Positions 3,424 through 58,131 of a stretch of 58,423 bases of DNA are shown piece by piece. The first letter of the stretch is position 1, and each line of letters begins with the position of its first letter. The DNA is from Candidatus Poseidoniaceae archaeon. GTDB lineage: Archaea; Thermoplasmatota; Poseidoniia; Poseidoniales; Poseidoniaceae. The stretch covers positions 1-58,423 of the forward strand of contig CBFIIS010000003.1 in the NCBI GenBank assembly GCA_965662715.1, written 5' to 3'. Both the position numbers and the translations under genes were made by a program. The notes beneath the pieces are model-generated. The model was not told the origin of the DNA. It did no database searches and saw only the letters and a list, made by a program, of their open reading frames with translations.

Positions 3424-3429
3424 CATCAA
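3424..3429 (-). promoter_or_regulatory. Putative non-canonical TATA element TTGATG
   Basis: 23 nt upstream of ATG 3400; the same spacing recurs across the window. Confidence 0.5.
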
Positions 3430-3464
3430 CGCTTCTCCTACTGGAGGATGGAATCTGGTTGGAA

Positions 3465-4085
3465 TCAGTATTCCAACAAGTCTGCCAGTTCGTCCTTGAT
3501 GATTTCCACAGCTTCGAGGATTTCATCCTTGTGACGTGCACCAGTGATGACCATTTTTCCGCTACCGAAGATCAAGCAAACCACCTTCGGGTAATCAAGT
3601 CGATAGATAAGACCCGGGAATTGCTCTGGTTCATACTCCACCTTGTCGAATGGTAGGTGGAAGGTCAAGTTGTTGAGGTTCAATTTTCGGGGCACGCCTG
3701 CTTGAGGCTCGCCAGTGAATTTGTCGTTTCCAGGATAGTCCTCGGGGTAATGGAGGGCGTAGGTCGCAACCATGTTTTGAACTTCGATTTCGACTTGATC
3801 GAGGTTCCAGGTTTCGATACCTGCTGCTCGCAAATCGTTAATCATTCGCTCGATTCCAGTGTGGATGTTGTCCTCGTTCTTTCCACCGGTGCATACGGCT
3901 CGGCCAGATCGGAACATGAGGATCGCAAGTTTTGGTTCAGTGACACGATAGACGACACCTGGGAATTGTTCAGGCTCGTATTCACAATTCAACTGAATTG
4001 CGATGTCAGGTAGGTCAAGTTCCTCAGCAACTCGTGTGCTGGCAACCACGTTCACAACAGTTAGACGTTCTTCATCGGTAGTCAT
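3465..4085 (-). CDS. tbp: TATA-box binding protein
   Basis: Two repeats: VNVVAS...YEPEQFPGVVYR...LMFRSG and VQNMVAT...YEPEQFPGLIYR...LIFGSGKMVITGA. Confidence 0.98.
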   Translation of the reverse strand: MTTDEERLTVVNVVASTRVAEELDLPDIAIQLNCEYEPEQFPGVVYRVTEPKLAILMFRSGRAVCTGGKNEDNIHTGIERMINDLRAAGIETWNLDQVEIEVQNMVATYALHYPEDYPGNDKFTGEPQAGVPRKLNLNNLTFHLPFDKVEYEPEQFPGLIYRLDYPKVVCLIFGSGKMVITGARHKDEILEAVEIIKDELADLLEY

Positions 4086-4095
4086 AGTGCTACCG

Positions 4096-4115
4096 ATATA
4101 TAACCACTATATAAA
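4096..4115 (-). promoter_or_regulatory. tbp promoter: canonical TATA box TTTATATA (4115-4108) plus a second TTATATAT (4103-4096)
   Basis: Minus strand reads TTTTATTTATATAGTGGTTATATATCGGTAGCACT-ATG. Confidence 0.75.
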
Positions 4116-4169
4116 TAAAAGGCAGACGCCTTGGTTCTGTAGATTCTCTAAATGTGACACTGCGGACGC

Positions 4170-5342
4170 TTATGAATCGGGGCTCCATATCGGTACACTG
4201 TCGATCGCTTCAACCCTCACGCCGTCGTTTCCAAATTTCGAAATAAATGCTCTTCCACCTGCGAGTTCGATGGCTTCGCTCGTTGTTTTTGGGTCTCGAG
4301 TGAGGGCGACCATGCAACCACCACCTCCTGCTCCAGTCAATTTTGCGCCAAGTGATGTTGGGGCGGCAGCTCGAATCAGTGCGTCAAGTTCTGGGCATGA
4401 AACACCAAGGCCGCGAAGCATAATTTGATTTTCCGTCATAGCACGGCCTACAGCATCAAAATCACCATTTTTCAATGCCGAGATTCCTCTTCGTGCAATG
4501 GTTCCAATCGTTTCGATTTCTTTCATGCGTTCCGGCTCCTGCACAATCGCTTCAGCGACCTTGGCTACTTGTGCAGATGTGGGGGCATACACTCCAGTAT
4601 TTCCAATGACCAAAAACAGATCATCGCTCCCCTCAGGTACCTTGAGGTCGTGCAACTCCCAAGTTCGCTTTCCATCACTCATTTCCAATGCTCTTCGATA
4701 AAGATGAGTTGCATCGTCTTCCACCTGATCACTCAGCAGAACAACACCCCCGTGAGCGCATGTTGAGGCGTCCATCGGCGATGCTCTGCCTCCCTGAGCT
4801 GCGGCTTCCACAGCATGTCCAAGTATGGCACACTCATCGATATCAAGAGCAGATTCAGCATGGATCATATGTGTTCGATTATCGTAATTCGACGGCCTCA
4901 ATCCAGCCTTCTCATCATCAAACGTGGCGTAAGCATCCGTGTCGCCAATGGAACTTGAATAGCCTTCAGCCCAATGATGAGCTCCGTCCCTTGCTTCAAC
5001 CATCCATCGTCCTCGAGCCACTCGGAGTGCAGCGCAGGCTGCCACGCTCAATGCAGCCGAAGATCCAAGTCCTGAAGCACGTGGAATATCGCCCGTAATT
5101 TGAATGGAAAGGGGTGGTGCCCCGTCTTTGGTAGGCCACAGGCGATGCCTCAATGTGTTGAGATGGGGGTGTTTTTTGCCCTCGAGTCTGTGCCCCTCAA
5201 GCCGCCAATGTTCATCTGGTGAAGGCTGGATGCTGACCTTTATTCGCTGTTCAATGGCGACGGCTACGGCTGGTTGACCAAAGACCACTGCATGCTCACC
5301 GAACAAGATGCACTTTCCAGGGGCGCTCGCTTCAACCAACAT
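4170..5342 (-). CDS. mvk: Mevalonate kinase (GHMP family) with large insertion
   Basis: SAPGKCILFGEHAVV, IPRASGLGSSAA, ASPMD, GAKLTGAGGGGC. Confidence 0.9.
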   Translation of the reverse strand: MLVEASAPGKCILFGEHAVVFGQPAVAVAIEQRIKVSIQPSPDEHWRLEGHRLEGKKHPHLNTLRHRLWPTKDGAPPLSIQITGDIPRASGLGSSAALSVAACAALRVARGRWMVEARDGAHHWAEGYSSSIGDTDAYATFDDEKAGLRPSNYDNRTHMIHAESALDIDECAILGHAVEAAAQGGRASPMDASTCAHGGVVLLSDQVEDDATHLYRRALEMSDGKRTWELHDLKVPEGSDDLFLVIGNTGVYAPTSAQVAKVAEAIVQEPERMKEIETIGTIARRGISALKNGDFDAVGRAMTENQIMLRGLGVSCPELDALIRAAAPTSLGAKLTGAGGGGCMVALTRDPKTTSEAIELAGGRAFISKFGNDGVRVEAIDSVPIWSPDS

Positions 5343-5460
5343 TTCTTTGCCGCCCAGTGGGAGCCACGAACCGGCGCTTGATATCCCTTGTTGAAAGTTG
5401 GCTTAATTTGTAGATTTTATTACGGTGCATTGAAAGATTGGTTTTGGCTGGCATGGGTGA

Positions 5461-10254: not shown

Positions 10255-10320
10255 GGCCTTCCGAAACGCGCGAGTGTCTTAACCTTCAAGTGAAGCAGAC
10301 CTCACCGCAGGCTGAATCCG

Positions 10321-14525: not shown

Positions 14526-14565
14526 CATGAACTCGTCGGCACGGCAGAATGCGGTTGTATTCAAG
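14526..14565. promoter_or_regulatory. Divergent promoter pair: TTCATG (minus, 14531-14526) and TTCAAG (plus, 14560-14565)
   Basis: 23 nt before ATG 14502 and 24 nt before ATG 14590. Confidence 0.55.
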
Positions 14566-15090: not shown

Positions 15091-15096
15091 TTCAAA
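15091..15096 (+). promoter_or_regulatory. Putative TATA-position element TTCAAA
   Basis: 23 nt before ATG 15120. Confidence 0.55.
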
Positions 15097-20426: not shown

Positions 20427-20432
20427 TTTGAA
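20427..20432 (-). promoter_or_regulatory. Putative TATA-position element TTCAAA
   Basis: 23 nt before ATG 20403. Confidence 0.55.
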
Positions 20433-24542: not shown

Positions 24543-24548
24543 CTTGAA
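24543..24548 (-). promoter_or_regulatory. Putative ileS promoter element TTCAAG
   Basis: 23 nt before ATG 24519. Confidence 0.55.
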
Positions 24549-24651: not shown

Positions 24652-24665
24652 TTCAAGTTCTTGAA
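24652..24665. promoter_or_regulatory. Palindrome TTCAAG-TT-CTTGAA; left arm is the promoter hexamer of the 1723-aa gene
   Basis: 6-2-6 inverted repeat; the left arm ends 23 nt before ATG 24681. Confidence 0.55.
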
Positions 24666-34718: not shown

Positions 34719-34825
34719 ATGATTGCAGAAGAACCTCAATGGTATCAAATGCTTCGGTTCTGGCCCGAAAACGAACTTTTCACCTCCTGTTCGCTCAGTG
34801 ATGCCTTTGCAGTCCAAGGGGTGAG

Positions 34826-34831
34826 TTCATG
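34826..34831 (+). promoter_or_regulatory. Putative TATA-position element TTCATG
   Basis: 23 nt before ATG 34855; divergent partner TTGATA (34748-34743) lies 24 nt before ATG 34718. Confidence 0.55.
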
Positions 34832-39418: not shown

Positions 39419-39462
39419 GTCGCTTCGTGTGAGCCATAGTCCAAGAAGGGTTGCTTTGACTC

Positions 39463-39588: not shown

Positions 39589-39594
39589 TTCAAT
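39589..39594 (+). promoter_or_regulatory. Putative promoter element TTCAAT at the head of the extended archaellum locus
   Basis: 23 nt before ATG 39618. Confidence 0.55.
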
Positions 39595-43000: not shown

Positions 43001-44952
43001 TCGCCGTGTATGACGCCTCGACTTCAGATTTCAAAACAAGCTACACAATCCAACTTCGAGTTGGTGCTTTGTTTGCTCTCGAAGCAGAAGCCTGGCCGGC
43101 TGTTATGGAATTCTACAGGCAAGGGACTCGCACTTGGGAAGTTGCCCTCACAAACACTGGAAACCGAGATGTAGAAGTCAATGTAGGTTATTCAGTGAAT
43201 AGAGCTGGTCTCGATGTTGGATCGAGTGATTGGACAATGGTTGACGGTGCACCAACGACCCTTTATCTCCCAGTCGGTGTTCCAATCACTCACATATTCA
43301 GTATCGAAGCATTGAATTTCGAACCCGATCTTTCGCTCCAAGCAGATTTCAAAATCTATTACGATCCTGTTGACGAAGCCGTTCAAGGCAACGCCTCATA
43401 TGAGACCAATCTCGTGATGTCGAGGTTCTTCAGCACTGGAGACATCATTCTCAGACCTGAGGTCGGCGATCCTCCAATCGATATTGACATCACATACTCT
43501 CACATCCCGAACGGACAAGCACTCTCCGCTGCCTATGAAATTGAATTGTGTGGTGCGAATCGAATCCTTGACTTCGCAGCCCTCAACCTCAACGACGCGG
43601 ATTATCCGTGGGAATTCAAGGTCGTGCTTCCAGACGCGAACAACACCGAAGTGATTCTACCGATTAACGCAGCATCATGCACATTTGGCACCCAAGGTGA
43701 ATCCTCAAGGATTTCATTACCAACTCGCAGCGCTTGGGATACATCCTCTCCGCTCAAAATTTCAGTCAATGCTCCTGAGCGAGGTAAAATTCTCTCAGGC
43801 GATGGCTGGGACCTCACGTTCCGACTCTATCACCCAACAGAGAACAATAATTATTCCACATTCGATGAGGAAACATTCAGTTTCCAATTGGACGTCTTCG
43901 CCGATCCATTGGTTGAATCCCTCGAAGTCATCACCATCGAAGAAGGTGAGGAATTCGATCTCTTGCTCACCGTGACCAACGCAGGTACGGCCACTGCTCT
44001 GGGTGTCGATGTCGCCCTTGTGTGCCCAACGTCGACCATTCTAAGTGGTCCTCTGGCTGAGCCAATGATTGGTATTCTTGGCCCGGGTGAATCTGTCGTG
44101 CTCAATTGGCGCATTCAACCAGATTCCATCGATTGGTGGGAACAGTCTGAAGCATCTGAGTGTACGGCGACCGTTGATGCCTTCTACATGGACAAGAACG
44201 TCGTCGGCAATGATGTACGAACCATTGAGATGAACGTTGAGTCTTCTTCCCCAGGTGTTTCAACCAGTTTCATAGCATTGATCATTTGTTTCCTCGCCTC
44301 CATCATCCTCCTTCGACTGACCGGACAAAATGAGAAATTCAGACTCATGGCAGTGTACGCTGGTGTGCTCGGCTTTGGCTTCTCATTCCACGTCCTTGAT
44401 GTTCCGTTCTGGGGTATCGCTGTTCTCATTGCAACAGCTCTGTGGATTTGGCGCATGAGTTGGTCAAGCGCTGAAGAATTCAAATTGATTCATGAGGACT
44501 ACCAACGCGCTCGTCGCGGTGTCTCAACGCTCTACACAGACCACTTCGATGCTCTGAAGGACAGCCGCCGCCAATTGAGCGTGATTCTGGCGGTTCCTGT
44601 GCTTGGTTTCATAGCGGTGATCCTCGGTCTTCCGCCTCAACTCTATACCGATCAAAACAACATGGTTTCGTTGCTTGTTTACATTACAATCGTCATGCTC
44701 GGAGTGTGGTTCATCATCCTTAGAGCAGATCGTGCCTATGGTAATCTGTACGGTCGCCTCACCGATGTTGAGGTCAAAGCAACTCGGATCGAACGAGACC
44801 TTGGCGACCCAGCACGTTTGTTCAATGAATTAGCGGGCGACGGCTTGAACCTCGACGAAATTTTCGGAGATGTTTCGAGCAACGCTACTGTTGGCGCGCT
44901 TGTCGGTGCAGAACAATCTCAAGAGGAGGTGAATGATGATGTCCAAAGATGA
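40036..44952 (+). CDS. Giant (1638 aa) surface protein with CARDB/NEW3-like Ig repeats, ~5 C-terminal TM helices and cytoplasmic tail
   Basis: Signal peptide; repeated xxNxG motifs (VRNTG, LKNTG, VTNDGN, ANIGN, VSNTGN, VTNIGN, LTNTGN, VTNAG); DSNPANN; five hydrophobic segments near the C-terminus. Confidence 0.85.
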   Translation: MKHLRNQSSSSTRLAFCLILLFLIPIATPLVATSGAQPTGRAAPDFSVSLMTMSGAGSINRGTGIIVEPAEHDIRVVVRNTGDVGGSASLQLVHKGSPTAGEYIVTTISLGNIPALTTSNPIIIPWTATTGDDQTLFARVSGNGDSNPANNEQRKDFDVKNNHSGISVSDTVPTLDPGETSVGLTRSVQTINASVRNNGVKNISSVMQLTLTEQANPSNSFVYYSNTQTLQSGSLFAPSSPKDLTLSFDPSALSGLWTLEVKILFNGTLWTDDPTIATVTVRLSNYTASLSSLGDRSIEPGQTGTLTFLLKNTGGLQDSYRIDSITTNPLTRNWADVSSVGSSTAALSPGATTSIGIPVTVPLGENRSNASVITITLLSIQDGYTLVTTAVVQAGESYIASIEMPSTVTELLPGDSNTIMANVTNDGNVGGEFTFDCGLSVAAINWVLDIQGEECDQWSTFINRSATVQIPINVKVPPIKSPLDPGEFNLAGQPLQVWLQVRAAGGGLPTQASAGIEVLPTIVVDPGLPVEELVLTEEDVIAARNGQGLEDVLGLNVEVRHNLFADIDETLSADIEVSGLSFLAANTGGFSEAGRWSAVVSPPELTGLKPGDTSPAILALQGPDDDYPLAGTITLSVTVTPTLGGVHAGSGVTANPVTRNLSIVIPSVLGAEILEDGPVDVQVGVETAVAFPFANIGNDLTSYRLRLADVPDDWIVQFNGTSDTIDNLSADVADFPATGSAHQSIVELLIQTDPFVPANSIVPLTITIEERDTGASIGEHILPVRVGELRNGTLFPLTQHISVDPTDFDEFKTIKVSNTGNAPTTYYVWIDDALAGDVIFELDSNPSMLVAPGYDDIIKINVIPTAAASADQTYEAVVWVADSTGAVNMSANITANITKSSDIRIDAPLVIGVTPGQMTNIEFNVTNIGNLQESILIMPSIEGNWSTDVTEIGMTLQINQTITGQIVVSVPSLGGEESLMDGSVHNLTLAVYDASTSDFKTSYTIQLRVGALFALEAEAWPAVMEFYRQGTRTWEVALTNTGNRDVEVNVGYSVNRAGLDVGSSDWTMVDGAPTTLYLPVGVPITHIFSIEALNFEPDLSLQADFKIYYDPVDEAVQGNASYETNLVMSRFFSTGDIILRPEVGDPPIDIDITYSHIPNGQALSAAYEIELCGANRILDFAALNLNDADYPWEFKVVLPDANNTEVILPINAASCTFGTQGESSRISLPTRSAWDTSSPLKISVNAPERGKILSGDGWDLTFRLYHPTENNNYSTFDEETFSFQLDVFADPLVESLEVITIEEGEEFDLLLTVTNAGTATALGVDVALVCPTSTILSGPLAEPMIGILGPGESVVLNWRIQPDSIDWWEQSEASECTATVDAFYMDKNVVGNDVRTIEMNVESSSPGVSTSFIALIICFLASIILLRLTGQNEKFRLMAVYAGVLGFGFSFHVLDVPFWGIAVLIATALWIWRMSWSSAEEFKLIHEDYQRARRGVSTLYTDHFDALKDSRRQLSVILAVPVLGFIAVILGLPPQLYTDQNNMVSLLVYITIVMLGVWFIILRADRAYGNLYGRLTDVEVKATRIERDLGDPARLFNELAGDGLNLDEIFGDVSSNATVGALVGAEQSQEEVNDDVQR

Positions 44953-46000
44953 TGTCAACGTTATTGACGACCCAGATATGATTCTGGATGAAGTCGATGC
45001 CTCTTTCGACCTCGAAGCCCCGGGATTGGATGATTCTCTGACAACAGCACCGGAGATGACCGAGGGCGAAGTCCAGGAAGCCCGTGCTGCAATTGCGGCG
45101 AGCAAAGATTCCGCAGACCGCCTCATCGCCGCCTCAAGAGAACTCGAATCTTTGGTGTTCGGCGTCGTTCAGGACGAATCAAATTCATTGGCTGGAACAG
45201 AAGTCGATATTGCAGATGCCAAACTGTTCCTCAATGCTCACAAACTGAAAGCGGCTCGCAAGTCGGTCAAGAAAGCTGAACAATCCCTCGCACTGCTCGA
45301 GGAAGATGTGCTTCACCTCCGGCGAAACATTGCGATGCTTCATAGATTGCTCAATGAAAAGAAAATCAATGAAGAAGAAATTGAAACAATTCTTCTCCGT
45401 CTTCATTCAGCAACAGGTGCTGCAGAAATTGGTGATGTTGGTGTCGCTGCTGGTGAGGTCGAACACCTTGTGGACGATCTCATCGGTGGGAACACCGCTA
45501 CCCTCAATCCTTTCCTCTTCCGTCATTTCTGGCTCGGTCTTGACACTCGGTGGCCAGCGGGTGGAGATGAAGGCGTCTTGATTGTCCGTCTCATCAATGA
45601 TGGTCCTGTGGCTATGCCGAGCATGCGCCTGGCTCCTCCAGTGCCTGAAGGATGGACCTGCGTTCCTTCCTCGGTTGATCTACCAATCATCGCCCCGGGC
45701 GGAAATCTACCGCTCCGGTTTGAAGTCAAGGCGAACCGTCGGTATGGCGCAGATGAAATCCCCCTCTCACGCAAGTTGGCAATTGCCACCTCGTACGAGA
45801 TGCGAACGGGCGATATTACCGCAACAATTCGCGCTCAGAATCGTTCGATGGAGCCCCTGCAAGACATTGTGCTCTCGCCATGGATTCCACCCGGCTTTAC
45901 CACAGATTCAGTCCCATTCATCAACCGTCTCGCACCTGATGAAGTCGCTCTTATTCGCATGCCTTTGCGCATCAACATTGGTTCAGGAGGGAATGCTTGA
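44933..46000 (+). CDS. Hypothetical protein: acidic N-terminus, helical/coiled-coil core, two C-terminal NEW3-like beta domains, no signal peptide
   Basis: SD GGAGGTGA then ATGATGATG, overlapping the upstream gene; PVPEGWT and WIPPGFT motifs. Confidence 0.8.
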
Positions 46001-46056
46001 ACCGCTCACAGTCCACCCTAATGGGGGATACAAAAAAAACAAAAATGGTGAAAAAT

Positions 46057-46617
46057 ATGAAAGAAAATACGAACGAAAACAGCGATAATATCGCTGCAAT
46101 TGGTATTGGTGCAATGATTGTGTTCATTGCCCTAATCCTTGTTGCGGCGGTTGCAGCAGCGGTCATTATTCAGACCGCTGAACAATTGCAACAAAATGCA
46201 CAAAGCACTGGCGAAGAGACAACTGACTTGTTGTCCTCCAAGGTGAACATCAAGGGTGCCGTGATCACTGGAGCTGGTGCAAACCAGATCTACATCACCT
46301 TCGAATTGGCCCCTGGATCTGATCCAGTCACAGCAAACACTGTGGCTTGGTCAATCATGTGCAGTGGAACCCCAAGCGGTGACGACTACGGAAACTTTGG
46401 TGCCGCACAGCAAGTTGGCGGTGCAGCTCTTGTCGGTGGCGTCCTCAGTCCGGGCACAACCTACACAATCGAACTAACCAACGCTGGTGGCCTTGCTACC
46501 TGCGTTCCAACAGCAAACCAAGACCACTCGTTGATGATTCAATCCGGTAAGGGTGGATTCACATACGAATTGCTCAACTACGGCGGAAACATTGCAGCAG
46601 GCGAGGTGATTGTATGA
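46057..46617 (+). CDS. flaB: Archaellin (archaeal flagellin) 1
   Basis: [28 protein letters not shown]; LAPGSDP; start 46057 behind SD GGTGA. Confidence 0.93.
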
Positions 46618-47195
46618 AGTCCTTCAACAATGAAGAACAACAAAACGACACAGTGGCAGCTATCGGTATCGGTGCAATGATTGTGTTTATTGCATTGATC
46701 CTTGTTGCAGCAGTTGCAGCAGCAGTGATTATTCAAACCGCAGAACAACTCCAACAAAACGCTCAGAAGACCGGTGAAGACACGGCAGACAACATGGCTG
46801 GAAAAGTCATGATTAACTCCGTCTACGTCGACACCAACGCTGCAGGAGAAGACTACCTTCTCTATGTTCGCTTGGCTCCTGGCAGTGAAGCAACAACAAC
46901 CACGACCATCTCATACCAGGTGTTCTGTGCGAACGGTGTTGCGGAAGGTGTCCTTCTCGCTGCAGATGTCGCTCCAATGACCACTGGTACATTCGGAACA
47001 GCGACCATGGCAGCCTCAACAGGATACATCATGACCATCGATGGAAACAACGGCGGTACAGATTGTAGCCCAGACGCAGTCAACGGCGGAAACCCAATTT
47101 CCACCGCACAATTGTTCATTCACGTTGGAAAGGGCGGTACAACCTACGAGACCCTGACCATCGACAGCAGCACTGCCGGATCAAAAATTGTCTGA
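46614..47195 (+). CDS. flaB: Archaellin (archaeal flagellin) 2
   Basis: Same N-terminal helix as archaellin 1; LAPGSEA; SD GAGGTGA; ATGA overlap. Confidence 0.93.
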
Positions 47196-47248
47196 TGTTC
47201 ATCTAGGGGCACAGCACAGCAATGTGCGCCCTTAGAGGAGGAATTATC

Positions 47249-48082
47249 ATGGCATGGCCATTTGGCAACAGTGCTCAGAAGGACCAAGGGGAAGACGCAT
47301 CACTTACTGAAGATCGGCTCAAAATCATGGCGAACATCGCCATTGAACAAGTCCCCCTTCCTGAAGAAGGAGAACTTGGAGAAGAAGATGCGTGGACCAT
47401 CTCACCCGGCCCCACGAAGGCACGCCTCAACAGCATCGGCAGTGTACCAAGCGTGGCAGCAAGCCTCGCTCCAGCACCAGCCGCACCGGTGAACACCACC
47501 GTCGACACCTCGGGTCTCGAACGTTTGATCAGCAGCCGTCTCGACATGGTCGAGGATGTGCTTCGCATGGTTGAAGTTCGACTCGAGCAACCGTCAGAAG
47601 CAGCAGCTTCGGGCGAATCTGCGGAAGGTGTCGATGTGGAAGACGCAGCACTCAGTGGTGACACTATTGTCACTGCAAGCGGTGAAGTTATTCCAGTCTC
47701 AGGAAACGATCGTCTCAAAGAAGTGGATGAAGCACCATTGGTGGAATTGTACGAAGCACAAGCTCTCGCTGCAAATCCATTCTTGCATGCTCCATCGCGC
47801 GGTGCAACTGCCAACGCAAACAGCGTTGGTGCACCAACTGTCTCCGCCCTCTTGCTCGACCATATGTCGGGCATGGCTGCAGTCAGTTTTACTCAGAAGG
47901 CCATGGCCTCGGGTATGCTAAGCGACGAAGAAGGACGTTCAGTCATGGCAATTGTTCAACTTGCAGAACCAGGTGAAACTGAGGCTGCTCTTGATGACCA
48001 TTTACCACACAAAGAATTGCTCACATTCTCATCGCTCGTCAGTTCATGGCGCAGCGTGAGAACACTCCGAGGTGAAGTCTGA
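47249..48082 (+). CDS. Divergent protein in the FlaC/D/E (ArlCDE) position
   Basis: Sits between the archaellins and flaF; acidic, short coiled coil; C-terminal LDDHLPHKELLTF only weakly recalls FlaD/E; SD GGAGG before ATG 47249. Confidence 0.55.
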   Translation: MAWPFGNSAQKDQGEDASLTEDRLKIMANIAIEQVPLPEEGELGEEDAWTISPGPTKARLNSIGSVPSVAASLAPAPAAPVNTTVDTSGLERLISSRLDMVEDVLRMVEVRLEQPSEAAASGESAEGVDVEDAALSGDTIVTASGEVIPVSGNDRLKEVDEAPLVELYEAQALAANPFLHAPSRGATANANSVGAPTVSALLLDHMSGMAAVSFTQKAMASGMLSDEEGRSVMAIVQLAEPGETEAALDDHLPHKELLTFSSLVSSWRSVRTLRGEV

Positions 48083-48083
48083 G

Positions 48084-48767
48084 ATGGCTGGCTCGGTAGG
48101 TATTGGTGGCCTCATCATTGGGGTCTCATTGTTGGTCGTGTTTTCCATGGCCGTTCAAACAATGTCGTATCAAATGGAAACCTCAATCGAGGTTTTGGAC
48201 GCTGCGGCTGATCCCCTACCAAGTTATGTTATTGCAGATGCATCTCTTCTCGAAGGCGCGATTCTCACTGTATCCGTCACAGGGACCGGTCTTGGTTCAG
48301 GTGTCGTCGATGGAACCCTTGTCGCAAATGGTGGGGTTGGTTTGGGTGGTTTTTCTGCTACTTTTACTGTGTCATCGGGGGAAATAGATACGAATTCCGT
48401 GGTCATCACCAGCCACGGCTCGTACTCAACCCTCCCTACGAGCATTACAGTAAGTGGTCAAGGAACACTAAATCCTGCACCAACATTCACCTTTACTACG
48501 GGCGATATCTTCTATGCTAACCTTACCAACACTGGTGACAAGACAATCAAAACAAACGATGTATGGTTGTTCTTTGATGGCGAGTCGCCAACAAAGTTCA
48601 GTTCAGTCCACCGTGATGGTTGGGCTCAAAATCAGGCCACACCTCCGTTCGCATCAGGAAACTGGTATGTTGGAGAAACGGTTGATTTGATTTTACCAAA
48701 CCCACCAACACTTACCACACGCTTTGCAGCCACATCCGAAGGATTCATTGCTGCAGAGGCGATTTGA
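48084..48767 (+). CDS. flaF: Archaellum accessory protein FlaF (ArlF)
   Basis: N-terminal TM; NLTNTGDKTI...WLFFDG...WYVGET; position before flaG. Confidence 0.75.
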   Translation: MAGSVGIGGLIIGVSLLVVFSMAVQTMSYQMETSIEVLDAAADPLPSYVIADASLLEGAILTVSVTGTGLGSGVVDGTLVANGGVGLGGFSATFTVSSGEIDTNSVVITSHGSYSTLPTSITVSGQGTLNPAPTFTFTTGDIFYANLTNTGDKTIKTNDVWLFFDGESPTKFSSVHRDGWAQNQATPPFASGNWYVGETVDLILPNPPTLTTRFAATSEGFIAAEAI

Positions 48768-48776
48768 GGGATTACT

Positions 48777-49274
48777 ATGGCAGATGGCGGTGCTTCGACT
48801 TTTATTATGCTCATCACAGGGCTTTTGATTTCGAGTTCAGTCAGTGCCTTGTTGATCACTGAATGGTCTTCTACAGCAAAGGTAGCGCAAGTACAGCAAC
48901 GCGGAGTTCAACTCGATTCAGAATTGGATATCGAATTTGCAGGCGACCCTATGATGGTGGATTTTGATGATTCAACATTACCAGAAACAATCACGTTTTA
49001 CATTCAGAACAGTGGGCTGCATTCCATGGATGAATCAAAGATGACCGTCGTGGTTGATGGTAGAGAACCGACGTCTGTTTCTGTCTCATTGGTTGGCACG
49101 CCTACGCCAAGTTCATGGGTTCCAAACGAACTCGCCATGATTGTCCTGGAATATAATCCGGCCTCTGGCTACAGTGATGGCGATGATGTCGCACTGTATG
49201 CCATTGCTACATCTGAAGTGATTGGCGGCCTTTCATCGAGTGCATCGATGAACATCGAGGTGAGACTGTCATGA
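48777..49274 (+). CDS. flaG: Archaellum accessory protein FlaG (ArlG)
   Basis: MADGGASTFIMLITGLLISSSVS; IEFAGDP; FYIQNSG; VVVDG; WVPNE. Confidence 0.85.
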   Translation: MADGGASTFIMLITGLLISSSVSALLITEWSSTAKVAQVQQRGVQLDSELDIEFAGDPMMVDFDDSTLPETITFYIQNSGLHSMDESKMTVVVDGREPTSVSVSLVGTPTPSSWVPNELAMIVLEYNPASGYSDGDDVALYAIATSEVIGGLSSSASMNIEVRLS

Positions 49275-49999
49275 AGGAAGATCCATTTTTGAAAGCTCAC
49301 AAGCCAAAGGAAGATGGTTTCCCCTATGACTTGGAAACAGATTCACTTGCGGATTCGATGGGTCTACGCTTACCAAACCGTTCACTCTATGTGTTGCAAG
49401 GTGCGGTCGGTGGCGGTAAATCACTGATCTCTCAACGTCTTGCCTATGGCATGGTGGAAAACGGGGTCAAGGTCCTCGTCATCACAACAGAACTCACCAC
49501 GCGCGGCTGGATTGAACAAATGGAATCCATTGGTTATGGTGTGACAGATGCAATTCGCGAGGGTACACTGATGGTGTTCTCACGCTTTGGAACGATTGCC
49601 GAATCCCTACCAAATGTTGGGCTTGATGAGTTGCTTGAATCTGAAGCAATTGCCCTTGCCGATGTTGTCATTATCGATGCAGCGAGTTCACTGATGCCTG
49701 ATTCACTTGAGGAGCCCGAGCGCTTTGCTATGATGCAACGATTAAGACGCATTTGTGCCGATGGTCGTTCATTGATGTTATGTGTTGACCCGGAAGAAAT
49801 GGATCACAAGTTGATGCACAGCATGCGTGCTTCTGCTGAAATAGTGCTTGATTTGACCACCAGCATGATCGGTGGAGAGATCAAAAGAAACATTGTTGTC
49901 ACGAGATTTTTGAGGGCTGCTGGACCAGTCCAGACCTCGATTGGATGGCGAGTTGAACCAAGCATGGGCTTCATCGTCGATATTACAGCCGTGAGCTGA
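49271..49999 (+). CDS. flaH: Archaellum RecA/KaiC-like ATP-binding protein FlaH (ArlH)
   Basis: Walker A GAVGGGKS, QRLAYG, ITTELT, QMESIGY, VVIID, WRVEPSMGFIVDI. Confidence 0.92.
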   Translation: MKEDPFLKAHKPKEDGFPYDLETDSLADSMGLRLPNRSLYVLQGAVGGGKSLISQRLAYGMVENGVKVLVITTELTTRGWIEQMESIGYGVTDAIREGTLMVFSRFGTIAESLPNVGLDELLESEAIALADVVIIDAASSLMPDSLEEPERFAMMQRLRRICADGRSLMLCVDPEEMDHKLMHSMRASAEIVLDLTTSMIGGEIKRNIVVTRFLRAAGPVQTSIGWRVEPSMGFIVDITAVS

Positions 50000-50013
50000 T
50001 GGAGGGATTTTGA

Positions 50014-51729
50014 ATGGCCGATGAACCACGCTTTGCCAAAGGGGACCTCAATGGTGTCATGGCAGCTCATCCACACGTTGCTGATTGGGTGCGTGACTTC
50101 GAAGCTCGATATGGGGCTCGCCCAATCTACTATGGTGAATTGGACCGAGATGCCAAAAAAGAACGACCTCTCAATTTGATTTACTTGGCCAAGGAGCCAA
50201 TTTTTGTTCACATTTACGAACCACCTGCTGATGAAGAAGGTGGTGGCCAAGTGTTGTGGTTTGGATTGGAACCACAACTCACTGAAGAAGAAGAAAACAT
50301 TCGTCGGGAATTGACCGAAACCTTACTTCAAGAAGCACCTACTGCTCCATCCTTTACTACTGATAATGAGTTCGAAAATATCCTCCGCCAAATGATTGAG
50401 CGGTACACGGTTCTCGATTCTGAACTTGGGGTGACCCCGCGACGACAAGGTCGTATGTGGGAAATGCTGGGCATGGATGACAAACGGCTCATTGTCAATC
50501 AAGAACAACGAACGCGTCTCGAGTACATCGTCATTCGAGACCTGATTCGTAATGGGCCACTTGAACCTCTGCTCTCCGACGAGATGCTGGAAGATATTCA
50601 CTCCATTGGGCTCAAACACGTCCACATGGATCACAAGGTGTTTGGCATGGTCACCTCAAACATTCGATTTAGGGAACGAGAAATGCTTTCTCGATTCCTT
50701 CGAGCTATGTCGGAACGTATTGGTCGCCCGGTGTCGGATAACAAGCCAATTATTGACGGCGCCCTGCTCGATGGATCCCGTATCAACATCATTTTCTCAG
50801 ACGACGTTTCCATGCTTGGCCCCTCGTTTACGATTCGTAAGTTCGCTGAAGAAACCATTTCCATTACACAATTAATCGCTTGGGGCACCATCTCTTCACA
50901 AGTCGCAGCCTACATCTGGATTTGCCTTGAGTATGGAATGTCTGTACTTGTTTCTGGTGAAACAGCATCAGGTAAGACCACGACCCTTAATGCAATTCTT
51001 CCATTCATCGATCATAACGTCAAGATTTACTCGGCGGAAGACACTCCTGAAGTGAAGGTTCGCCACAAGATTTGGCAACGCCTCGTCACTCGCTCTTCGA
51101 AGAATGAAGAATCTCGCGTCGAAATGTTCGATTTGCTCAAAGCAGCATTGCGTAGCCGCCCACGGTACATCATCATCGGTGAAATTCGTGGTGTTGAAGG
51201 TGCGACCGCTTTCCAGGCCATGCAGACAGGTCACCCTGTAATCGCCACCTTCCACGCCTCTTCAATCGTCAAGATGATCCAGCGGTTTACCGGTGACCCA
51301 ATCAACGTTCCAATTCGTTTCTTCGATAACCTGAATTTTGCAATTTTCCAAGAAGTTGTTGAGGCTCCAGGTGGTGGAATCGCACGACGTGTCACTGGTA
51401 TCGACGAAGTCATCGGCTACAACAAGCACAGCGATGGTGTTCTCACTCGTGGTATGTTCGAGTGGGATCCTGTCAAAGACAAGCATTACTTCCGAGGTAT
51501 GTTCCAGAGCCACTTGCTCGAAAATAAGATTGCTGCAATGGCTGGTTTTGCGAACAAGCGTGATATTTACGATGAGATGCTCAAGCGAGCCGCAGCTCTT
51601 CAGAAAATGGTCGATCGGGACTTAACTCACTACGATGACGTCTTTGATTTGCTTGGGATTTATTACAACAGTGGCTGGGACCACTTCGACCGTGCCATCG
51701 ATTCATGGAAGGGTGTCAACCACGATTGA
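50014..51729 (+). CDS. flaI: Archaellum motor ATPase FlaI (ArlI)
   Basis: DGSRINI, FTIRKF, SGETASGKTTTLNA, EDTPE, ALRSRPRYIIIGEIRG, QAMQTGH, TFHA. Confidence 0.96.
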   Translation: MADEPRFAKGDLNGVMAAHPHVADWVRDFEARYGARPIYYGELDRDAKKERPLNLIYLAKEPIFVHIYEPPADEEGGGQVLWFGLEPQLTEEEENIRRELTETLLQEAPTAPSFTTDNEFENILRQMIERYTVLDSELGVTPRRQGRMWEMLGMDDKRLIVNQEQRTRLEYIVIRDLIRNGPLEPLLSDEMLEDIHSIGLKHVHMDHKVFGMVTSNIRFREREMLSRFLRAMSERIGRPVSDNKPIIDGALLDGSRINIIFSDDVSMLGPSFTIRKFAEETISITQLIAWGTISSQVAAYIWICLEYGMSVLVSGETASGKTTTLNAILPFIDHNVKIYSAEDTPEVKVRHKIWQRLVTRSSKNEESRVEMFDLLKAALRSRPRYIIIGEIRGVEGATAFQAMQTGHPVIATFHASSIVKMIQRFTGDPINVPIRFFDNLNFAIFQEVVEAPGGGIARRVTGIDEVIGYNKHSDGVLTRGMFEWDPVKDKHYFRGMFQSHLLENKIAAMAGFANKRDIYDEMLKRAAALQKMVDRDLTHYDDVFDLLGIYYNSGWDHFDRAIDSWKGVNHD

Positions 51730-51739
51730 GGGATGATGA

Positions 51740-53542
51740 ATGCAGCGAATGTCGATGTGGCAAATCGCGTTGCGGCGACTTGAAATGCCCATTCTTCGAT
51801 TTCTTGCTTTGTTCGTAGGAGGCGCTGCATTTGCGGGCTTTTTCATGTCCATTGTCATCATCCTCCTTACAGGAGGATTGGCGGAAGGCGCCCTCTTTTC
51901 TGGACTGTCTGGTGTCCTTCTTCTTATTCTATTACCAATCCTCTCTGGAGGTGCGGCGATTGTTTTTCCAATCCTCGACGTTCAACGCTCAGCAACCCTC
52001 ATCGAAAAGGAGATGCATATGTTCATCACAAGAATGGGGATTTTATCCCTCGGTGAAGTTGGGGCCCAATCCATCTTCGATATCCTCAAACAGATGAGGG
52101 ACTATGGTGAACTTGCAACGGAAGTTCAGAGGATTGAAACTCTTGTCGATAAATGGCATACTTCCCTGCCCGAAGCCTCTCGTATTGTAGCCCAACAAAG
52201 CCCAAGTCCGTTGTGGGCTGACTTCCTTGATCGCATGGCGTTCTCCATCGAAGCGGGCCAACCAATCGATGAGTTCATGCGCTCAGAGCAAGAGACGATT
52301 GCAGAACAGTATACAACCCTGTATGACACTCGTTTGGAATCCGTTGACACAATGAAGGAGATCTACGTCTCTCTGGTTTCTGCAGGATTGTTTGGTCTTG
52401 TCATCGCTGGTATTCACTTGGTTCTTTTTGAAACCGGTTCGCCAACCGATGCTCCAATAGAAATCGCCAGCCGGTTGCGTTTCTTGCTCTTAGCGGGACT
52501 TCTTTTCACCATCGTTCAGATTGGCGGTGTTGTCGCTTTCAATTCGACGATTCCAGAAGACCCAACGTTTGCACGTGACGAAATGGACACGCCGTTCCGG
52601 ATTAATTTCCTGAGAGCATTGGTTGGTGCCACCGTCATTTCGACATTTTTGTTCATCATCACGGTCATTGTGATTTTAGCATCATGGCAAGAGGTCAGCG
52701 CCCAATGGGACCGCTATGGACTTCTCCTGATCGTTGCGCCCCTCTCCCCAATGTTGATCCCGGCATTCATGGTTGGTCGAGAAGAAGGCCAAGTCCTGCG
52801 ACGAGACGAAACATATCCTGACTTTATCCGCGCTTTAGGTGGTACTGCCCAAGCGCGTTCCGCAGAACCATCGGCCACAATCAAAGCATTGAGGGGTATT
52901 GATTTTGGTGTTCTGGACAATTCCATCGATCGCCTAGAGAAGCGTTTGTCCACACGAATTGACTCGGACCGAGCATGGGATTACTTCACTGCGGATACAA
53001 ATTCAGCAGTAATTTCGAGGTACACTCGAATTTACATCGAGGGTTCACAGTCTTCGGGTCAACCCGCAGCGACAGCAGAAATGGTTTCTCGCTCTGTAGG
53101 TAATCTGCTCTCCTTGCGCCGCCGTCGTGCTCTATCTGCCAATACGATGCGGGGTGTCGCTCTTGGATTACTGATTGCAACCGTGACCAGCCTCAACGTC
53201 ACCATCGCTATTGTTCTCAAGTTAGGCGATTCAATTGCTGGTGTTGCTGAAGGGTTCGTTGATACCGATGTCTCGGCACTTTCACGCTTTGGTTCTGACC
53301 TCGCCCTGCCGGTGATGGAAGATGCATCAGCTGTTGGTGAAAACATCAGGATGTTCAAGATCATTGTCTCCATTCTCATTCTTTTCCAAGTTGCAGCGGT
53401 TTCCATGATTTCCAATCGTCTGAGGGGTGGTGGGAAAACAACTGCTCTTGGCCAAGCCATCCAATTGCTTTGGGTGGCAGGTATCACTTCGTTCCTCACA
53501 TCGATTGTTCTTGAGAGCGCTTCGGGAATCTTCGGAGTCTGA
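51740..53542 (+). CDS. flaJ: Archaellum membrane platform protein FlaJ (ArlJ)
   Basis: Polytopic; MHMFITRM, SPSPLWADFLDRMAF, RRDETYPDFIRALG; follows flaI. Confidence 0.92.
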   Translation: MQRMSMWQIALRRLEMPILRFLALFVGGAAFAGFFMSIVIILLTGGLAEGALFSGLSGVLLLILLPILSGGAAIVFPILDVQRSATLIEKEMHMFITRMGILSLGEVGAQSIFDILKQMRDYGELATEVQRIETLVDKWHTSLPEASRIVAQQSPSPLWADFLDRMAFSIEAGQPIDEFMRSEQETIAEQYTTLYDTRLESVDTMKEIYVSLVSAGLFGLVIAGIHLVLFETGSPTDAPIEIASRLRFLLLAGLLFTIVQIGGVVAFNSTIPEDPTFARDEMDTPFRINFLRALVGATVISTFLFIITVIVILASWQEVSAQWDRYGLLLIVAPLSPMLIPAFMVGREEGQVLRRDETYPDFIRALGGTAQARSAEPSATIKALRGIDFGVLDNSIDRLEKRLSTRIDSDRAWDYFTADTNSAVISRYTRIYIEGSQSSGQPAATAEMVSRSVGNLLSLRRRRALSANTMRGVALGLLIATVTSLNVTIAIVLKLGDSIAGVAEGFVDTDVSALSRFGSDLALPVMEDASAVGENIRMFKIIVSILILFQVAAVSMISNRLRGGGKTTALGQAIQLLWVAGITSFLTSIVLESASGIFGV

Positions 53543-55010: not shown

Positions 55011-55223
55011 TTATGGATCGACTTTGACCGAATATGCTTCACCAGTGGCCCATCCAAAGACAAGTCCAAGGGTGACAGAAAGCAACGGGATGCCGTTACA
55101 CACGATGCTTTCGACAGGTTCGGTCACCGCTTCGCCTCCTGCAATGTACCAAATCACAAAGCCGAGAAGGAGGCCGGGGATGAGCATAACGCCCCCCATG
55201 ATGAGCGTTCTTAGTAGGCGCAT
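55011..55223 (-). CDS. Small 2-TM membrane protein
   Basis: MRLLRTLIMGGVMLIPGLLLGFVIWY...; TTCTTG exactly 23 nt upstream favours ATG 55223 over TTG 55244. Confidence 0.7.
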   Translation of the reverse strand: MRLLRTLIMGGVMLIPGLLLGFVIWYIAGGEAVTEPVESIVCNGIPLLSVTLGLVFGWATGEAYSVKVDP

Positions 55224-55273
55224 GCCACGAGGAAGAGGTGGCAAGTCAAGAAGGTGTGCATCTCAAATGATGT

Positions 55274-57208: not shown

Positions 57209-57231
57209 GGAGGTGCTGTGTCGGCGACCCT

Positions 57232-57273
57232 TGTCAAAGATTGTGTTAAAGCAAATACGACTTCACATTGAAG
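57232..57273. promoter_or_regulatory. Divergent promoter pair: TTGACA (minus, 57237-57232) and TTGAAG (plus, 57268-57273)
   Basis: Each is 23 nt before its ATG (57208 and 57297). Confidence 0.55.
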
Positions 57274-57296
57274 AACTTCGGCTCCTGCCCTTGTTC

Positions 57297-57626
57297 ATGG
57301 TCGACCCCGCAACCATTGAGCGTCTGGCCGAGGGTCTGTGTGGGTTTTCTGCCGTTCTGTTCACTTTTATTGCCTCGTTCTCCCGTTCACCCCCAGTAGA
57401 ACGCGTGGTGCAGAACCTGATTGCCGTTAGTCTGATTGCTGCGGCGGCTGTTCTATGGTGGCTCTCGTTGTCTGGAGGGACCTTATGGGGTTCGAATTAC
57501 TTACCTAAACCGCTTTCTTTGGTTTGTATTGTGATCGCTATCTCCGCCCGAATGAACATCAAGGGAGAGAATGTTTCCTTCGGGGCCAACCCGCACACGA
57601 TTGGTAAAGACAAATCCGAGGAGTAA
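57297..57626 (+). CDS. Small 3-TM membrane protein
   Basis: MVDPATIERLAEG...; three hydrophobic segments; the longer ORF start overlaps polX and was rejected. Confidence 0.7.
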   Translation: MVDPATIERLAEGLCGFSAVLFTFIASFSRSPPVERVVQNLIAVSLIAAAAVLWWLSLSGGTLWGSNYLPKPLSLVCIVIAISARMNIKGENVSFGANPHTIGKDKSEE

Positions 57627-58010
57627 TCAAACGATTTCGCCCTGAGGTTGAGGTCCTTTGTCCTCATCACCTGTTGAATTGTTTTCCATGGATTCCTTGG
57701 CCATCTTTTGATCGATGAAGGTACGCATGTACTCTGGCAGTTCCCCATTGACGAAAATCACGTCGTTGATGGCTTCCAATTTTTTCAAAGAATAGTAAAT
57801 TTGCATGGCGGTCATCGGCGTCGATGAACAGCCATTGCACCCTCCATCGAGCGAGAGCATGATGTTGCCATCACTTGTGTCAAGCACGGTCACAACACCA
57901 TCGTGCTCGTCAAGGATCTCTTGTACTGGCCCGATTTCGGCGAGTACCTCCTCGGCAGTCATGGTCATGCCCATCCCTCGTGCATCTCCTCTTTCAACAA
58001 TTGCCTCCAT
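57627..58010 (-). CDS. NifU/NfuA C-terminal domain protein (Fe-S cluster carrier)
   Basis: ILDEHDGVV...LSLDGGCNGCSS; TTCACA 23 nt upstream of ATG 58010. Confidence 0.85.
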   Translation of the reverse strand: MEAIVERGDARGMGMTMTAEEVLAEIGPVQEILDEHDGVVTVLDTSDGNIMLSLDGGCNGCSSTPMTAMQIYYSLKKLEAINDVIFVNGELPEYMRTFIDQKMAKESMENNSTGDEDKGPQPQGEIV

Positions 58011-58131
58011 TCCCCATTCAAAAAGACGCTCGGTGTGAATGGACCAGTCGTAAAAAGGCCACGACCACGGCTTTTGAAAGGGGAACCACTTATGAGGGGT
58101 TCTCAGGTCGCCAAGCCACAGGTGTTCTGTT

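Follow-up and report, generated by a model that had tools for sequence, protein, structure and literature searches.

What is the hexamer beginning with TT(C/G) that stands at a fixed distance before start codons in the window (the whole 58,423-nt stretch of DNA analysed here)? The archaeal TATA box lies ~24–30 nt upstream of the transcription start, with its centre at about −26/−27. The original prediction placed the hexamer in the same position, in a rewired core promoter serving leaderless first genes. The source genome (1.8 Mb, 85% complete) is that of an archaeon of the Poseidoniales, or Marine Group II (MGII). We conclude that the hexamer, of consensus TTSAWR where S is C or G, is very likely an archaeal TATA box in the form used by Poseidoniales, a lineage-specific variant that drives leaderless transcription. 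According to PMC6461757, no other planktonic archaea are as abundant in the surface ocean as MGII, of which no member has been cultured. Our search of the literature found no paper linking MGII with leaderless transcripts, transcription starts, the TATA box or core promoters.

All 15 of the sites originally listed are present in the window as described. At 13 of them TT(C/G) begins at −29 relative to the start codon, giving the hexamer, 23 nt and then ATG, and at the two with a spacing of 24 nt it begins at −30. Ten of the 15 fit TTSAWR strictly. The nucleotide at −1 is C in 12, and an SD-like 4-mer is missing from 14. The starts at 3400, 14502, 14590, 34718 and 57297 are other than the first in-frame start codon, and that at 24519 is not the first ATG.

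From the left end of the window, the first box is TTGATG (3424–3429, minus strand), 23 nt before ATG 3400 of a large PKD/CARDB surface protein (Pfam) located directly downstream of tbp. This start is supported by conservation of box and spacing, since TTGATG or TTCATG followed by 23–24 nt and ATG occurs downstream of tbp in ~12 of 28 related loci. TTCATG (14526–14531, minus) precedes ATG 14502 of an amidohydrolase-domain protein, with C at −1 and A at −10, and TTCAAG (14560–14565, plus) lies 24 nt before ATG 14590 of a thioredoxin whose Pfam match begins at residue 4. There follow TTCAAA (15091–15096, plus) before ATG 15120 of an S15 peptidase, and TTCAAA (20427–20432, minus) before ATG 20403 of a 465-aa protein without a Pfam family. 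TTCAAG (24543–24548, minus) precedes ATG 24519 of isoleucyl-tRNA synthetase (IleRS), where the start is fixed by homology, and TTCAAG (24652–24657, plus) precedes ATG 24681 of a 1723-aa protein, also without a Pfam family. TTGATA (34743–34748, minus), 24 nt before ATG 34718 of a DUF7151 protein, is a weaker case because the nucleotide at −1 is T. TTCATG (34826–34831, plus) is found before ATG 34855 of aconitase X, in which the Pfam AcnX match begins at residue 1, and TTGAAG (57268–57273, plus) before ATG 57297 of a 109-aa protein.

The remaining five sites are looser. TTCTTG (39442–39447, minus) precedes ATG 39418 of a peroxiredoxin. TTCAAT (39589–39594, plus), before ATG 39618 of a 144-aa protein, is weakened by T at −1 together with an AGGT 4-mer at −16. 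A second TTCTTG (55247–55252, minus) lies before ATG 55223 of a putative 70-aa membrane ORF, the coding status of which is unproven and the start of which was picked with the motif in mind. TTGACA (57232–57237, minus) precedes ATG 57208 of PolX with a PHP domain. TTCACA (58034–58039, minus) is located before ATG 58010 of a NifU-like protein, with A at −1; this start is uncertain because a strict box and an SD both precede an alternative start, ATG 57968. The sequence TTGACA at 57232–57237 was also considered as a bacterial −35 element, and this was rejected: the genome encodes TBP and TFB, and the 23-nt spacing does not fit a −35/−10 promoter. A search of the window against Rfam gave no match.

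The positional signal is general in the genome. The gene set was a naive one, comprising the longest ORFs of at least 100 aa chosen greedily and each begun at its first ATG (n = 1363). Strict TTSAWR begins at −29 in 103 of these genes. Control positions yield 9.1 ± 3.1, and shuffled upstream regions 2.7 ± 1.6 (maximum 8), so that the predicted consensus is recovered genome-wide; the neighbouring registers have 51 at −30 and 21 at −28. The shorter TTS is found at −29 in 172 genes, against 68.2 ± 10.7 (maximum 90) over positions −70 to −41. Within the window by itself, 11 of the 41 genes begun at their first ATG have TTS at −29 (binomial P = 3.8e-6). When all 4-mers were scanned at all positions, TTCA at −29 (64 vs 12.0) and TTGA at −29 (67 vs 14.4) came top after the SD. 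Among the S-type boxes pooled from Poseidoniales, hexamer-to-start distances number 152 at −29, 69 at −30, 33 at −28 and 25 at −31. The hexamer spans −29 to −24 from the start codon with its centre at −26.5, the position of a TATA box if transcription begins at the start codon. A strict box at −30 to −28 is present in only 175 of the 1363 genes.

Selectivity at the third position is strong. Of 108 TTNAWR boxes at −29, 103 have C or G as the third base. Expectation maximization (EM) begun from TTTAAA or from TTTATATA ends at TT[C/G]A[A/T][G/A], with A ≤0.03 and T ≤0.10 at position 3. The EM frequencies there are A 0.00, C 0.40, G 0.55 and T 0.04, and the motif is therefore not an A/T-only TATA box. 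The fractions of motif-bearing genes given by EM (0.4–0.55) were left unused because they are inflated by the weak model. Nor is there an alternative A/T-rich box at the TATA position, where TTWWWW at −29 occurs 6 times against 3.1.

Could base composition, gene calling or coding sequence upstream have produced the signal artificially, or could it act in translation, within a leader? The start calls are naive and some starts were picked with the motif in mind, which lends this view some substance. It is rejected by the position and shuffle controls, and equally by comparison with other ATG triplets: the box is found at −29 in 104 of 1378 gene-start ATGs and in 334 of 79,668 other ATGs. Moreover, genes for non-coding RNAs also have the box, and it is conserved at homology-fixed starts with diverging flanks and absent from sister lineages put through the same pipeline (all below). 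We regard an artefact as scarcely credible.

The conservation is seen at two genes of the window. For IleRS the homology matches begin at residue 1–2 in 41 of 41 genomes, and of 30 orthologous loci 29 have a strict box at −31 to −28, its third position being C in 15 and G in 14. For AcnX, where seven loci of family f3 have a GTG start, 28 of the 30 orthologous loci have the strict box (C 13, G 15). At the 45 control positions from −80 to −36 there are 5 and 6 hits for IleRS and AcnX, respectively. The box persists across the order ahead of homology-fixed starts although the sequences on either side have diverged, and the comparison with shuffled controls and related genomes that had been proposed as a check comes out in favour of the motif.

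S-type peaks occur in genera of both large families of the order, f1 (g1 11 vs 0.6, g2 15 vs 0.8, g4 6 vs 0.4) and f3 (g10 10 vs 1.2, g13 7 vs 1.0); the related genomes are non-independent samples. The one genome sampled of family f2 (160 kb, 121 genes, 6% contamination) has no positional peak; its IleRS promoter has TTGAAA. The same pipeline found no S-type peak in sister family f4 (GC 60%) or in family f5 (GC 61%), which have instead an A/T-only box (TTWW at −28, 30 vs 4.4; and TTWA at −28, 8 vs 0.9, respectively). The box is likewise A/T-only in other Thermoplasmatota (53 vs 13.5). Drift in GC content was considered as the cause of the change from T to S at position 3 and rejected, because these two sister lineages of the class keep A/T-only boxes at 60–61% GC.

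The same element serves protein, tRNA and rRNA genes, as a TATA box does under the single archaeal RNA polymerase. Among the tRNA genes, strict TTSAWR lies at −42 to −28 in 10 of 33, with 10 hits in these 15 positions against 6 in ~80 other positions. The 16S rRNA gene was not found in the source genome, which is 85% complete, and for this reason the rRNA promoter was examined in relatives. In four of four, TT[G/C]ATATA is found 276–308 nt before the 16S gene, and the conserved rRNA leader starts with a T|G step located exactly 23 nt past the hexamer. In TTSATATA the S is aligned with position 3 of TTTATATA. Since the box also precedes tRNA and 16S rRNA genes, it is a transcription signal. These data bear on a further explanation, that a lineage-specific global regulator or nucleoid protein binds the hexamer, which would fall at −29 by chance and not be a TBP site. 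G or C at position 3 is indeed atypical of TBP sites. The distance to the start is rigid, however, all three classes of gene are affected and the TATA position holds no other A/T-rich box; the hexamer consequently occupies the place where TBP must bind, and a regulator is highly improbable.

Some A/T-only boxes remain, at tbp and at a third of the tRNA genes. The tbp gene of the window (3465–4085, minus strand) encodes a TBP of 206 aa, TBP-A (Pfam TBP, 175 bits), a candidate reader of the box. Its own start, ATG 4085, is preceded by a canonical TTTATATA box at 4108–4115 on the same strand (−30 to −23). In other Poseidoniales the tbp gene has an A/T-only box (TTTATA, TTTAAA or TTTATAAG) in all five examined. 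In a pooled Poseidoniales sample 279 protein genes have an S-type box and 56 an A/T-only box, and the two sets of promoters have the −36/−35 and −1 signals in common.

The sequence around the box has several features of an archaeal core promoter. In the 172 TTS genes A is found at −26 in 76%, A or T at −10 in 84% and C at −1 in 69%. The box reappears when genes are selected without reference to it: in a class set by C(−1), W(−10) and S(−9) alone (n = 311) there are 44 TTCA and 35 TTGA at −29. C at −1 is present in 69–71% of box genes compared with 39% of others and, with A of ATG or G of GTG at +1, gives the pyrimidine/purine step of an initiator. A BRE, read by TFB, is a purine-rich element directly upstream of the TATA box; in that region there is only a weak preference, for C at −36 and G at −35 (0.42 each) and for A at −34/−33 (0.32–0.36).

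Box genes are depleted of SD-like 4-mers (40 of 175, against 445 of 1188 others) and tend to be first rather than internal genes. Of 319 genes that lie <30 nt from the preceding gene on the same strand, 13 carry the box and 198 an SD-like 4-mer, which bears out the earlier assignment of SDs to internal operon genes. The box is present in 62 of 277 genes with gaps of 30–99 nt and in 70 of 452 in divergent pairs. Both box and SD are missing from many genes that appear to come first. The spacing, the initiator-like signal of C(−1) and A(+1) and the lack of an SD together suggest that the mRNAs are leaderless. Of the claim of leaderless first genes, the association with first genes and the depletion of SDs thus hold as observations, and a transcription start at the ATG of box genes is probable on the basis of spacing and initiator-like signal. 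A search for RNA sequencing runs that contain the window returned none, and four sets of marine metatranscriptome contigs gave five short pieces with 85–95% likeness to the window, which are uninformative on starts.

The promoter would then work as follows. Position 3 of a TTTAWATA box is changed from T to C or G, with the hexamer placed 23 nt (sometimes 22–25 nt) upstream of the transcription start. In about one-eighth of genes, mostly first in their transcription units, the start would be the A of ATG (or G of GTG), giving an mRNA with neither leader nor SD; operon-internal genes would use GGAGGTGA, complementary to the 3′ end of 16S rRNA. The remainder of the core promoter appears to be of the ordinary archaeal kind, with weak C/G at −36/−35 in the place of a BRE, two S after an A/T at −10, and the pyrimidine/purine initiator (C at −1, A at +1). 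TBP presumably binds the box via the minor groove, and TFB and RNA polymerase would follow. A reader that senses the 2-amino group of guanine in the minor groove would treat C and G as interchangeable and nearly exclude A/T at position 3, a logic that could account for the S preference.

In alignments, repeat 2 of TBP-A contains an insertion, specific to the lineage, that follows strand S1′ (AF2 model of TBP-A, pLDDT 91.7). By alignment, the residues of TBP-A that face the DNA are canonical and do not differ from those in lineages whose boxes are A/T-only. No molecular basis for the S preference was found. The core promoter is thus rewired in its DNA consensus, as predicted, but the DNA-contact residues of TBP are unchanged and A/T-only boxes persist.

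A bolder version holds that G/C at position 3 is specifically read, and not just tolerated, by an innovation of the order in its initiation machinery, either the insertion of TBP-A or a complex of a second protein, TBP-B, possibly with TFB-2. We consider it a minority possibility. Such reading would correspond to a position-3 S kept by selection in orthologous promoters, with free exchange between C and G and almost no A/T. In one form it could involve a structured insertion of 22–55 aa after strand S1′ of TBP-A; in another, a Phe-poor TBP-B complex (with TFB-2) would act at most genes and TBP-A at A/T-only promoters. If true, this would be the first archaeal remodelling of a TBP–DNA recognition code, or a TRF2-like division of labour.

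The division of labour can also be put as a rival in its own right, with two initiation systems in which TBP-A reads the A/T-only boxes (tbp and many tRNA genes) and TBP-B, a divergent TBP paralogue specific to the order, perhaps with the likewise order-specific TFB-2, reads TTSAWR. The two box classes do coexist. TBP-B (G000:C31:3992-4531, 180 aa) scores 30.7 bits against Pfam TBP, and its model (pLDDT 91.5) has TM 0.75–0.83 to TBP structures. In the alignment only one of its four intercalating Phe residues is retained, and the first stirrup is shortened. It is found in 24/24 f1, 15/16 f3 and 0/19 f4 genomes, the distribution of the S-type box, and TFB-2 has orthologues (at least 52% identity) in 38/40 Poseidoniales, compared with matches of only 35–40% in f4/f5. 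This co-occurrence of TBP-B and S-type box amounts, however, to a single evolutionary event, and the TBP-A insertion, being also order-specific, agrees with the phyletic pattern just as well. The rRNA promoter, which is the strongest candidate, is TTSATATA, a canonical box except at position 3, and S-type and A/T-type promoters have the same register and flanking signals. Furthermore, a saddle without Phe pairs, whose role is described in PMC3142196, is not expected to bend a TATA-like site. Two separate systems are therefore unlikely, and a single TATA-type box, with TBP as its presumed reader, is the preferred reading.

Metazoan TRF2 is not known to have the TATA-intercalating phenylalanines. 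TBP-B resembles it, on alignment, in appearing to be a TBP-fold paralogue that has lost intercalating residues and is confined to one lineage. Unlike TRF2, which activates TATA-less promoters (described in PMC4180970), TBP-B has a putative role in binding DNA and promoters, and the two are unrelated in origin.

The Poseidoniales promoter is like the archaeal core promoter, especially that of haloarchaea, in position, order of elements, W at −10 and initiator, in its use at protein, tRNA and rRNA genes, and in that canonical TTTATATA is still used at tbp. The haloarchaeal elements are described as TTWT, CGAAA and −10 WW in PMC4983044. It is unlike them in the C or G at position 3 (the 103 of 108 boxes above) across two families of the order, where the sisters are A/T-only. 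GeneMarkS-2 ‘group D’ takes in 11/11 Thermoplasmata and, as described in PMC6028130, has a box ~26 nt from the start with a spacer of 22–24 nt, and an RBS for other genes. The arrangement here is similar, with a box and such a spacer before probably leaderless first genes and an RBS elsewhere; it differs in the fixed-position G/C, for which the account of group D in PMC6028130, as far as it goes, describes no counterpart. According to their entries, PDB 1qn3 (‘C(−25)’) and 1qn5 (‘G(−26)’) are variants of the adenovirus major late promoter box, and indicate that the eukaryotic TBP saddle accommodates single G:C pairs. In those structures single variants toward the 3′ half of the box are tolerated, whereas the Poseidoniales S is preferred and conserved at position 3.

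With this box, which would serve most of their leaderless genes, abundant and uncultured ocean archaea would have altered, throughout the lineage, the signal most basic to transcription. It offers a natural experiment in which TBP-type recognition shifts from T to G/C at one base pair, with candidate causes identified. With its fixed spacing the box could help to place gene starts and delimit transcription units across thousands of MGII genomes, and it could serve as a promoter for heterologous or cell-free expression. It may also mark viruses and plasmids of MGII hosts. A TBP protein search of a phage collection returned three haloarchaeal virus records only, and a scan of viral contigs found 11 loci with TBPs, ≤47% identical and none tied to MGII.

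Orthologues of the peroxiredoxin at 39418 have a strict box in only 8/30 and a relaxed box in 18/30. The sequence is TTCTTG within the genus, and TTGATG, TTCATG or TTGAAA at −29 in other genera.

The TTSAWR hexamer (S = C or G, W = A or T, R = A or G) holds a fixed position upstream of genes across the genome to which the window belongs (1.80 Mb, 113 contigs, 50% GC; the window is its contig C3). Genes were called naively: a greedy pass took the longest ORFs, with 100 amino acids as the minimum, and set each start at the first ATG. This yielded 1403 genes, of which 1363–1366 have sufficient upstream sequence. In this set the genome-wide enrichment of TTS anticipated in the original prediction is found as a sharp peak at −29 (hexamer, 23 nt, start codon), with TTC in 84 genes and TTG in 88. 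These 172 genes compare with 68.2 ± 10.7 at control positions −70 to −41. When all 256 tetramers are scanned at all positions, TTCA (64 vs 12.0) and TTGA (67 vs 14.4) at −29 come next after the Shine–Dalgarno (SD) words. The full hexamer occurs 103 times at −29, 51 times at −30 and 21 times at −28, against 9.1 ± 3.1 at control positions; shuffling the upstream regions leaves 2.7 ± 1.6 and never more than 8. Of the 108 TTNAWR boxes at −29, 103 have C or G at position 3, and TTTAWA occurs only four times, at −30. The box lies at −29 of 104 of 1378 gene-start ATGs, compared with 334 of the 79,668 other ATGs of the genome. Within the window alone TTS is at −29 of 11 of the 41 first-ATG genes (P = 3.8e-6).

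The 15 individual sites first reported all match their description, with TT(C/G) at −29 in 13 and at −30 in two. Ten have the strict TTSAWR, 12 have C at −1, and 14 lack an SD-like tetramer. The NifU-like gene (57968–58010, −) has two candidate starts: at the ATG 58010 (−) the box is loose and −1 is A, and the ATG 57968 (−) has a strict TTSAWR at −29 together with GAGG at −11. Directly past the PolX stop there is a hydrophobic 70-aa ORF (55011–55223, −) whose start has TTCTTG at −29 and is immediately preceded by C; this may be an unannotated gene for a small membrane protein.

Several starts can be fixed by homology. For isoleucyl-tRNA synthetase (IleRS) the query was the first 150 residues counted from the ATG at 24519 (−) and not from the first ATG of the ORF. 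Of 41 Poseidoniales genomes, 40 give a match that begins at residue 1 or 2; in the remaining one it begins at residue 6. The box predicted before this start holds, a strict TTSAWR being located at −31 to −28 in 29 of 30 loci, although such counts come from related genomes and are not independent samples. Position 3 is C in 15 of these and G in 14, and the flanks have diverged. The aconitase X (AcnX) gene (34855, +) has a strict box in 28 of 30 loci, with C in 13 and G in 15. At both genes C and G have exchanged repeatedly while A and T are almost absent, a pattern better explained by selection for S at position 3 than by drift. Seven AcnX orthologues of the second large family, f3 (L277–L279, L281–L283 and L285), start with GTG and retain the box at −29 or −30, with C or another pyrimidine immediately before the GTG; their transcripts would be leaderless mRNAs beginning with GUG. 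Peroxiredoxin is weaker (strict box in 8 of 30 loci, relaxed box in 18 of 30); TTCTTG is retained in the genus of the window, and in one genus TTTTG or TTTAG takes its place. As a control, the 45 positions from −80 to −36 of the three genes hold 5, 7 and 6 matches to the same pattern. In about 12 of 28 related loci, an ATG downstream of tbp again has TTGATG or TTCATG ahead of it at a spacing of 23–24 nt, and the start at 3400 (−) is thus supported.

The box also precedes genes for stable RNA. The tRNA genes examined were the 33 for which 100 nt upstream are available. Ten have a strict TTSAWR 28–42 nt 5′ of the mature end (10 hits in 15 positions, vs 6 in ∼80 other positions), a further 11 an A/T-only box of the kind TTATAT or TTAAAT, and the remaining 12 lack both. 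The 16S gene is not assembled in the genome of the window, and the rRNA promoter was read instead in four relatives (three genera, two families), where TT[G/C]ATATA is conserved 276–308 nt upstream of 16S. The conserved rRNA leader, GCTTGCGT / GCTGCGTC, starts at a T|G step exactly 23 nt past the hexamer. This candidate promoter is a perfect archaeal TTTATATA save for position 3, so the variable S is aligned with position 3 of the classical TATA box, as had been proposed. On the evidence of sequence, TTSAWR is a transcription signal.

Further elements accompany the box. In the 172 TTS genes, positions outside the selection are A (76%) at −26, W (84%) at −25 and R (81%) at −24; downstream there is W (84%) at −10, S at −9 and −8 and C (69%) at −1, and C/G is weakly present at −36/−35. 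Conversely, 311 genes picked solely by C(−1), W(−10) and S(−9) have TTCA (44) or TTGA (35) at −29. The expected division of start signals is also seen: SD-like words precede 40 of 175 box genes vs 445 of 1188 others, and where the same-strand gap is <30 nt the box is found in 13 of 319 genes and an SD-like word in 198 of 319. The box is commoner after gaps of 30–99 nt (62/277) and in divergent pairs (70/452). The SD consensus, TGAGGTGA at −12, is complementary to the 16S 3′ end of relatives, GGATCACCTCCT. A same-strand run at 44933–53542 (+), with GAGG, GGAGG or GAGGT ahead of each start, is a good example within the window of internal genes led by SD sequences; it closes with a T2SSE-family ATPase (50014–51729) followed by a T2SSF-family membrane protein (51740–53542) and resembles an operon for an archaellum or pilus. 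The 66-nt divergent intergenic region 10255–10320, between the ATG at 10254 (−) and the CysRS start at 10321 (+), contains one palindromic CTTCAAGTGAAG that one gene would read as TTGAAG at −35 and the other as TTCAAG at −36, TTSAA being its own reverse complement. The two genes may share this element, or use it as a bidirectional box, with leaders of 6–7 nt.

Leaderless first genes with SD-led genes elsewhere would correspond to the dual architecture of archaea, in agreement with the original prediction, given the SD depletion and operon context. In archaea with leaderless first genes the box is described as lying about 26 nt from the start, the spacer being 22–24 nt (PMC6028130), and the core promoter proposed for haloarchaea (TTWT, CGAAA and WW at −10; PMC4983044) has its elements in the same order as the Poseidoniales box promoters. 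By position and context TTSAWR is the predicted TATA box of these archaea, yet at one fixed position, order-wide, it departs from the A/T-only consensus. The solved TBP structures 1qn3 and 1qn5, by their entry titles, tolerate single G:C pairs elsewhere in the box, whereas in Poseidoniales G/C is preferred and conserved at a fixed position. A literature search returned no paper on TATA boxes, leaderless transcripts, transcription starts or core promoters of Marine Group II/Poseidoniales. The box is of real interest for archaeal transcription, and a practical aid to annotating a very abundant uncultured group.

Relatives were analysed with the same pipeline on sampled stretches of 100–400 kb each. 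The peak is present in the genus of the window (11 vs 0.6, 159 genes), in two other genera of its family (15 vs 0.8, 200 genes; 6 vs 0.4, 68 genes) and in two genera of f3 (10 vs 1.2 with shoulders, 309 genes; 7 vs 1.0, 148 genes). Whatever the seed, expectation maximization (EM) ends at TT[C/G]A[A/T][G/A] in each of the three Poseidoniales sets. The TTSA peak is absent from the sister family f4 of the same class (0–1 vs 2.0; four genomes, GC 60%, 281 genes), where TTWW at −28 is found 30 times vs 4.4 and EM reaches cTTwwAta even from a TTCAAG seed. Lineage f5 (GC 61%, 147 genes) has an A/T-only box. In other Thermoplasmatota (40 TBP-neighbourhood loci, 614 genes) there is likewise no TTSA peak, and TTWW at −28 is found 53 times vs 13.5. 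A contrary result comes from the Poseidoniales family f2, sampled in one genome (G001:C1:1-160000, 160 kb, 121 genes, 6% contamination), which, unlike the window's family and f3, has no positional peak of either box type before first-ATG starts; its IleRS promoter nevertheless reads TTGAAA. The lack of a peak may come from starts being used differently, from longer leaders or from the quality of the sample.

The genome encodes a canonical TBP (TBP-A; tbp at 3465–4085, −, within the window) and two TFBs, so its source is an archaeon. Among named public records, the TBP loci nearest to its own (88–96% identity) come from MAGs that carry the labels Poseidoniaceae, Poseidoniales or Marine Group II. 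We take the DNA-contact residues of TBP to be Asn and Val of S1, two Phe pairs, Leu of S4, and Val and Thr of S5. TBP-A retains these in both repeats, identical to lineages with A/T-only boxes, and is 86–95% identical between two families except for an insertion. This insertion (residues about 112–135) lies directly past strand S1′ of repeat 2, is conserved and order-specific, and in its model (pLDDT 84–88) includes short strands. It is about 22 aa in the family of the window and about 55 aa and acidic in f3, and is missing from every outgroup aligned (f4, f5, Acidiplasma and Haloarcula). A divergent paralogue, TBP-B, is encoded outside the window (G000:C31:3992-4531, +; 180 aa, 30.7 bits against Pfam TBP) by an SD-led gene overlapping the stop codon of the ORF before it. 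Its model is a full TBP saddle (pLDDT 91.5), with TM 0.75–0.83 to solved TBPs at 14–20% identity. TBP-B is present in 24 of 24 genomes of the window's family and 15 of 16 of f3 (39 of 40 Poseidoniales sampled), and in none of 19 of f4. By alignment three of the four intercalating Phe residues are gone and the first stirrup is four residues shorter; the role of the Phe pairs is described in PMC3142196. The TFB genes are at G000:C22:4675-5652 and G000:C15:3415-4341 (both +). The C22 copy has an N-terminal extension, and among 60 class genomes sampled its orthologues (at least 52% identity) occur only in Poseidoniales.

Labour may be divided between TBP-A and TBP-B, but S-type (279) and A/T-type (56) promoters have the same register and the same flanks, the candidate rRNA box is TTSATATA, and TBP-B is without the DNA-bending residues. 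For these reasons we favour a single complex that reads both types of box. The tbp gene itself has a canonical TTTATATA box (4108–4115, −), a perfect match at −30, followed at about −17 by a second one, TTATATAT. A/T-only boxes likewise precede the five other Poseidoniales tbp genes examined, six of six in all, which may be a hint that canonical boxes single out a limited number of special or strong promoters.
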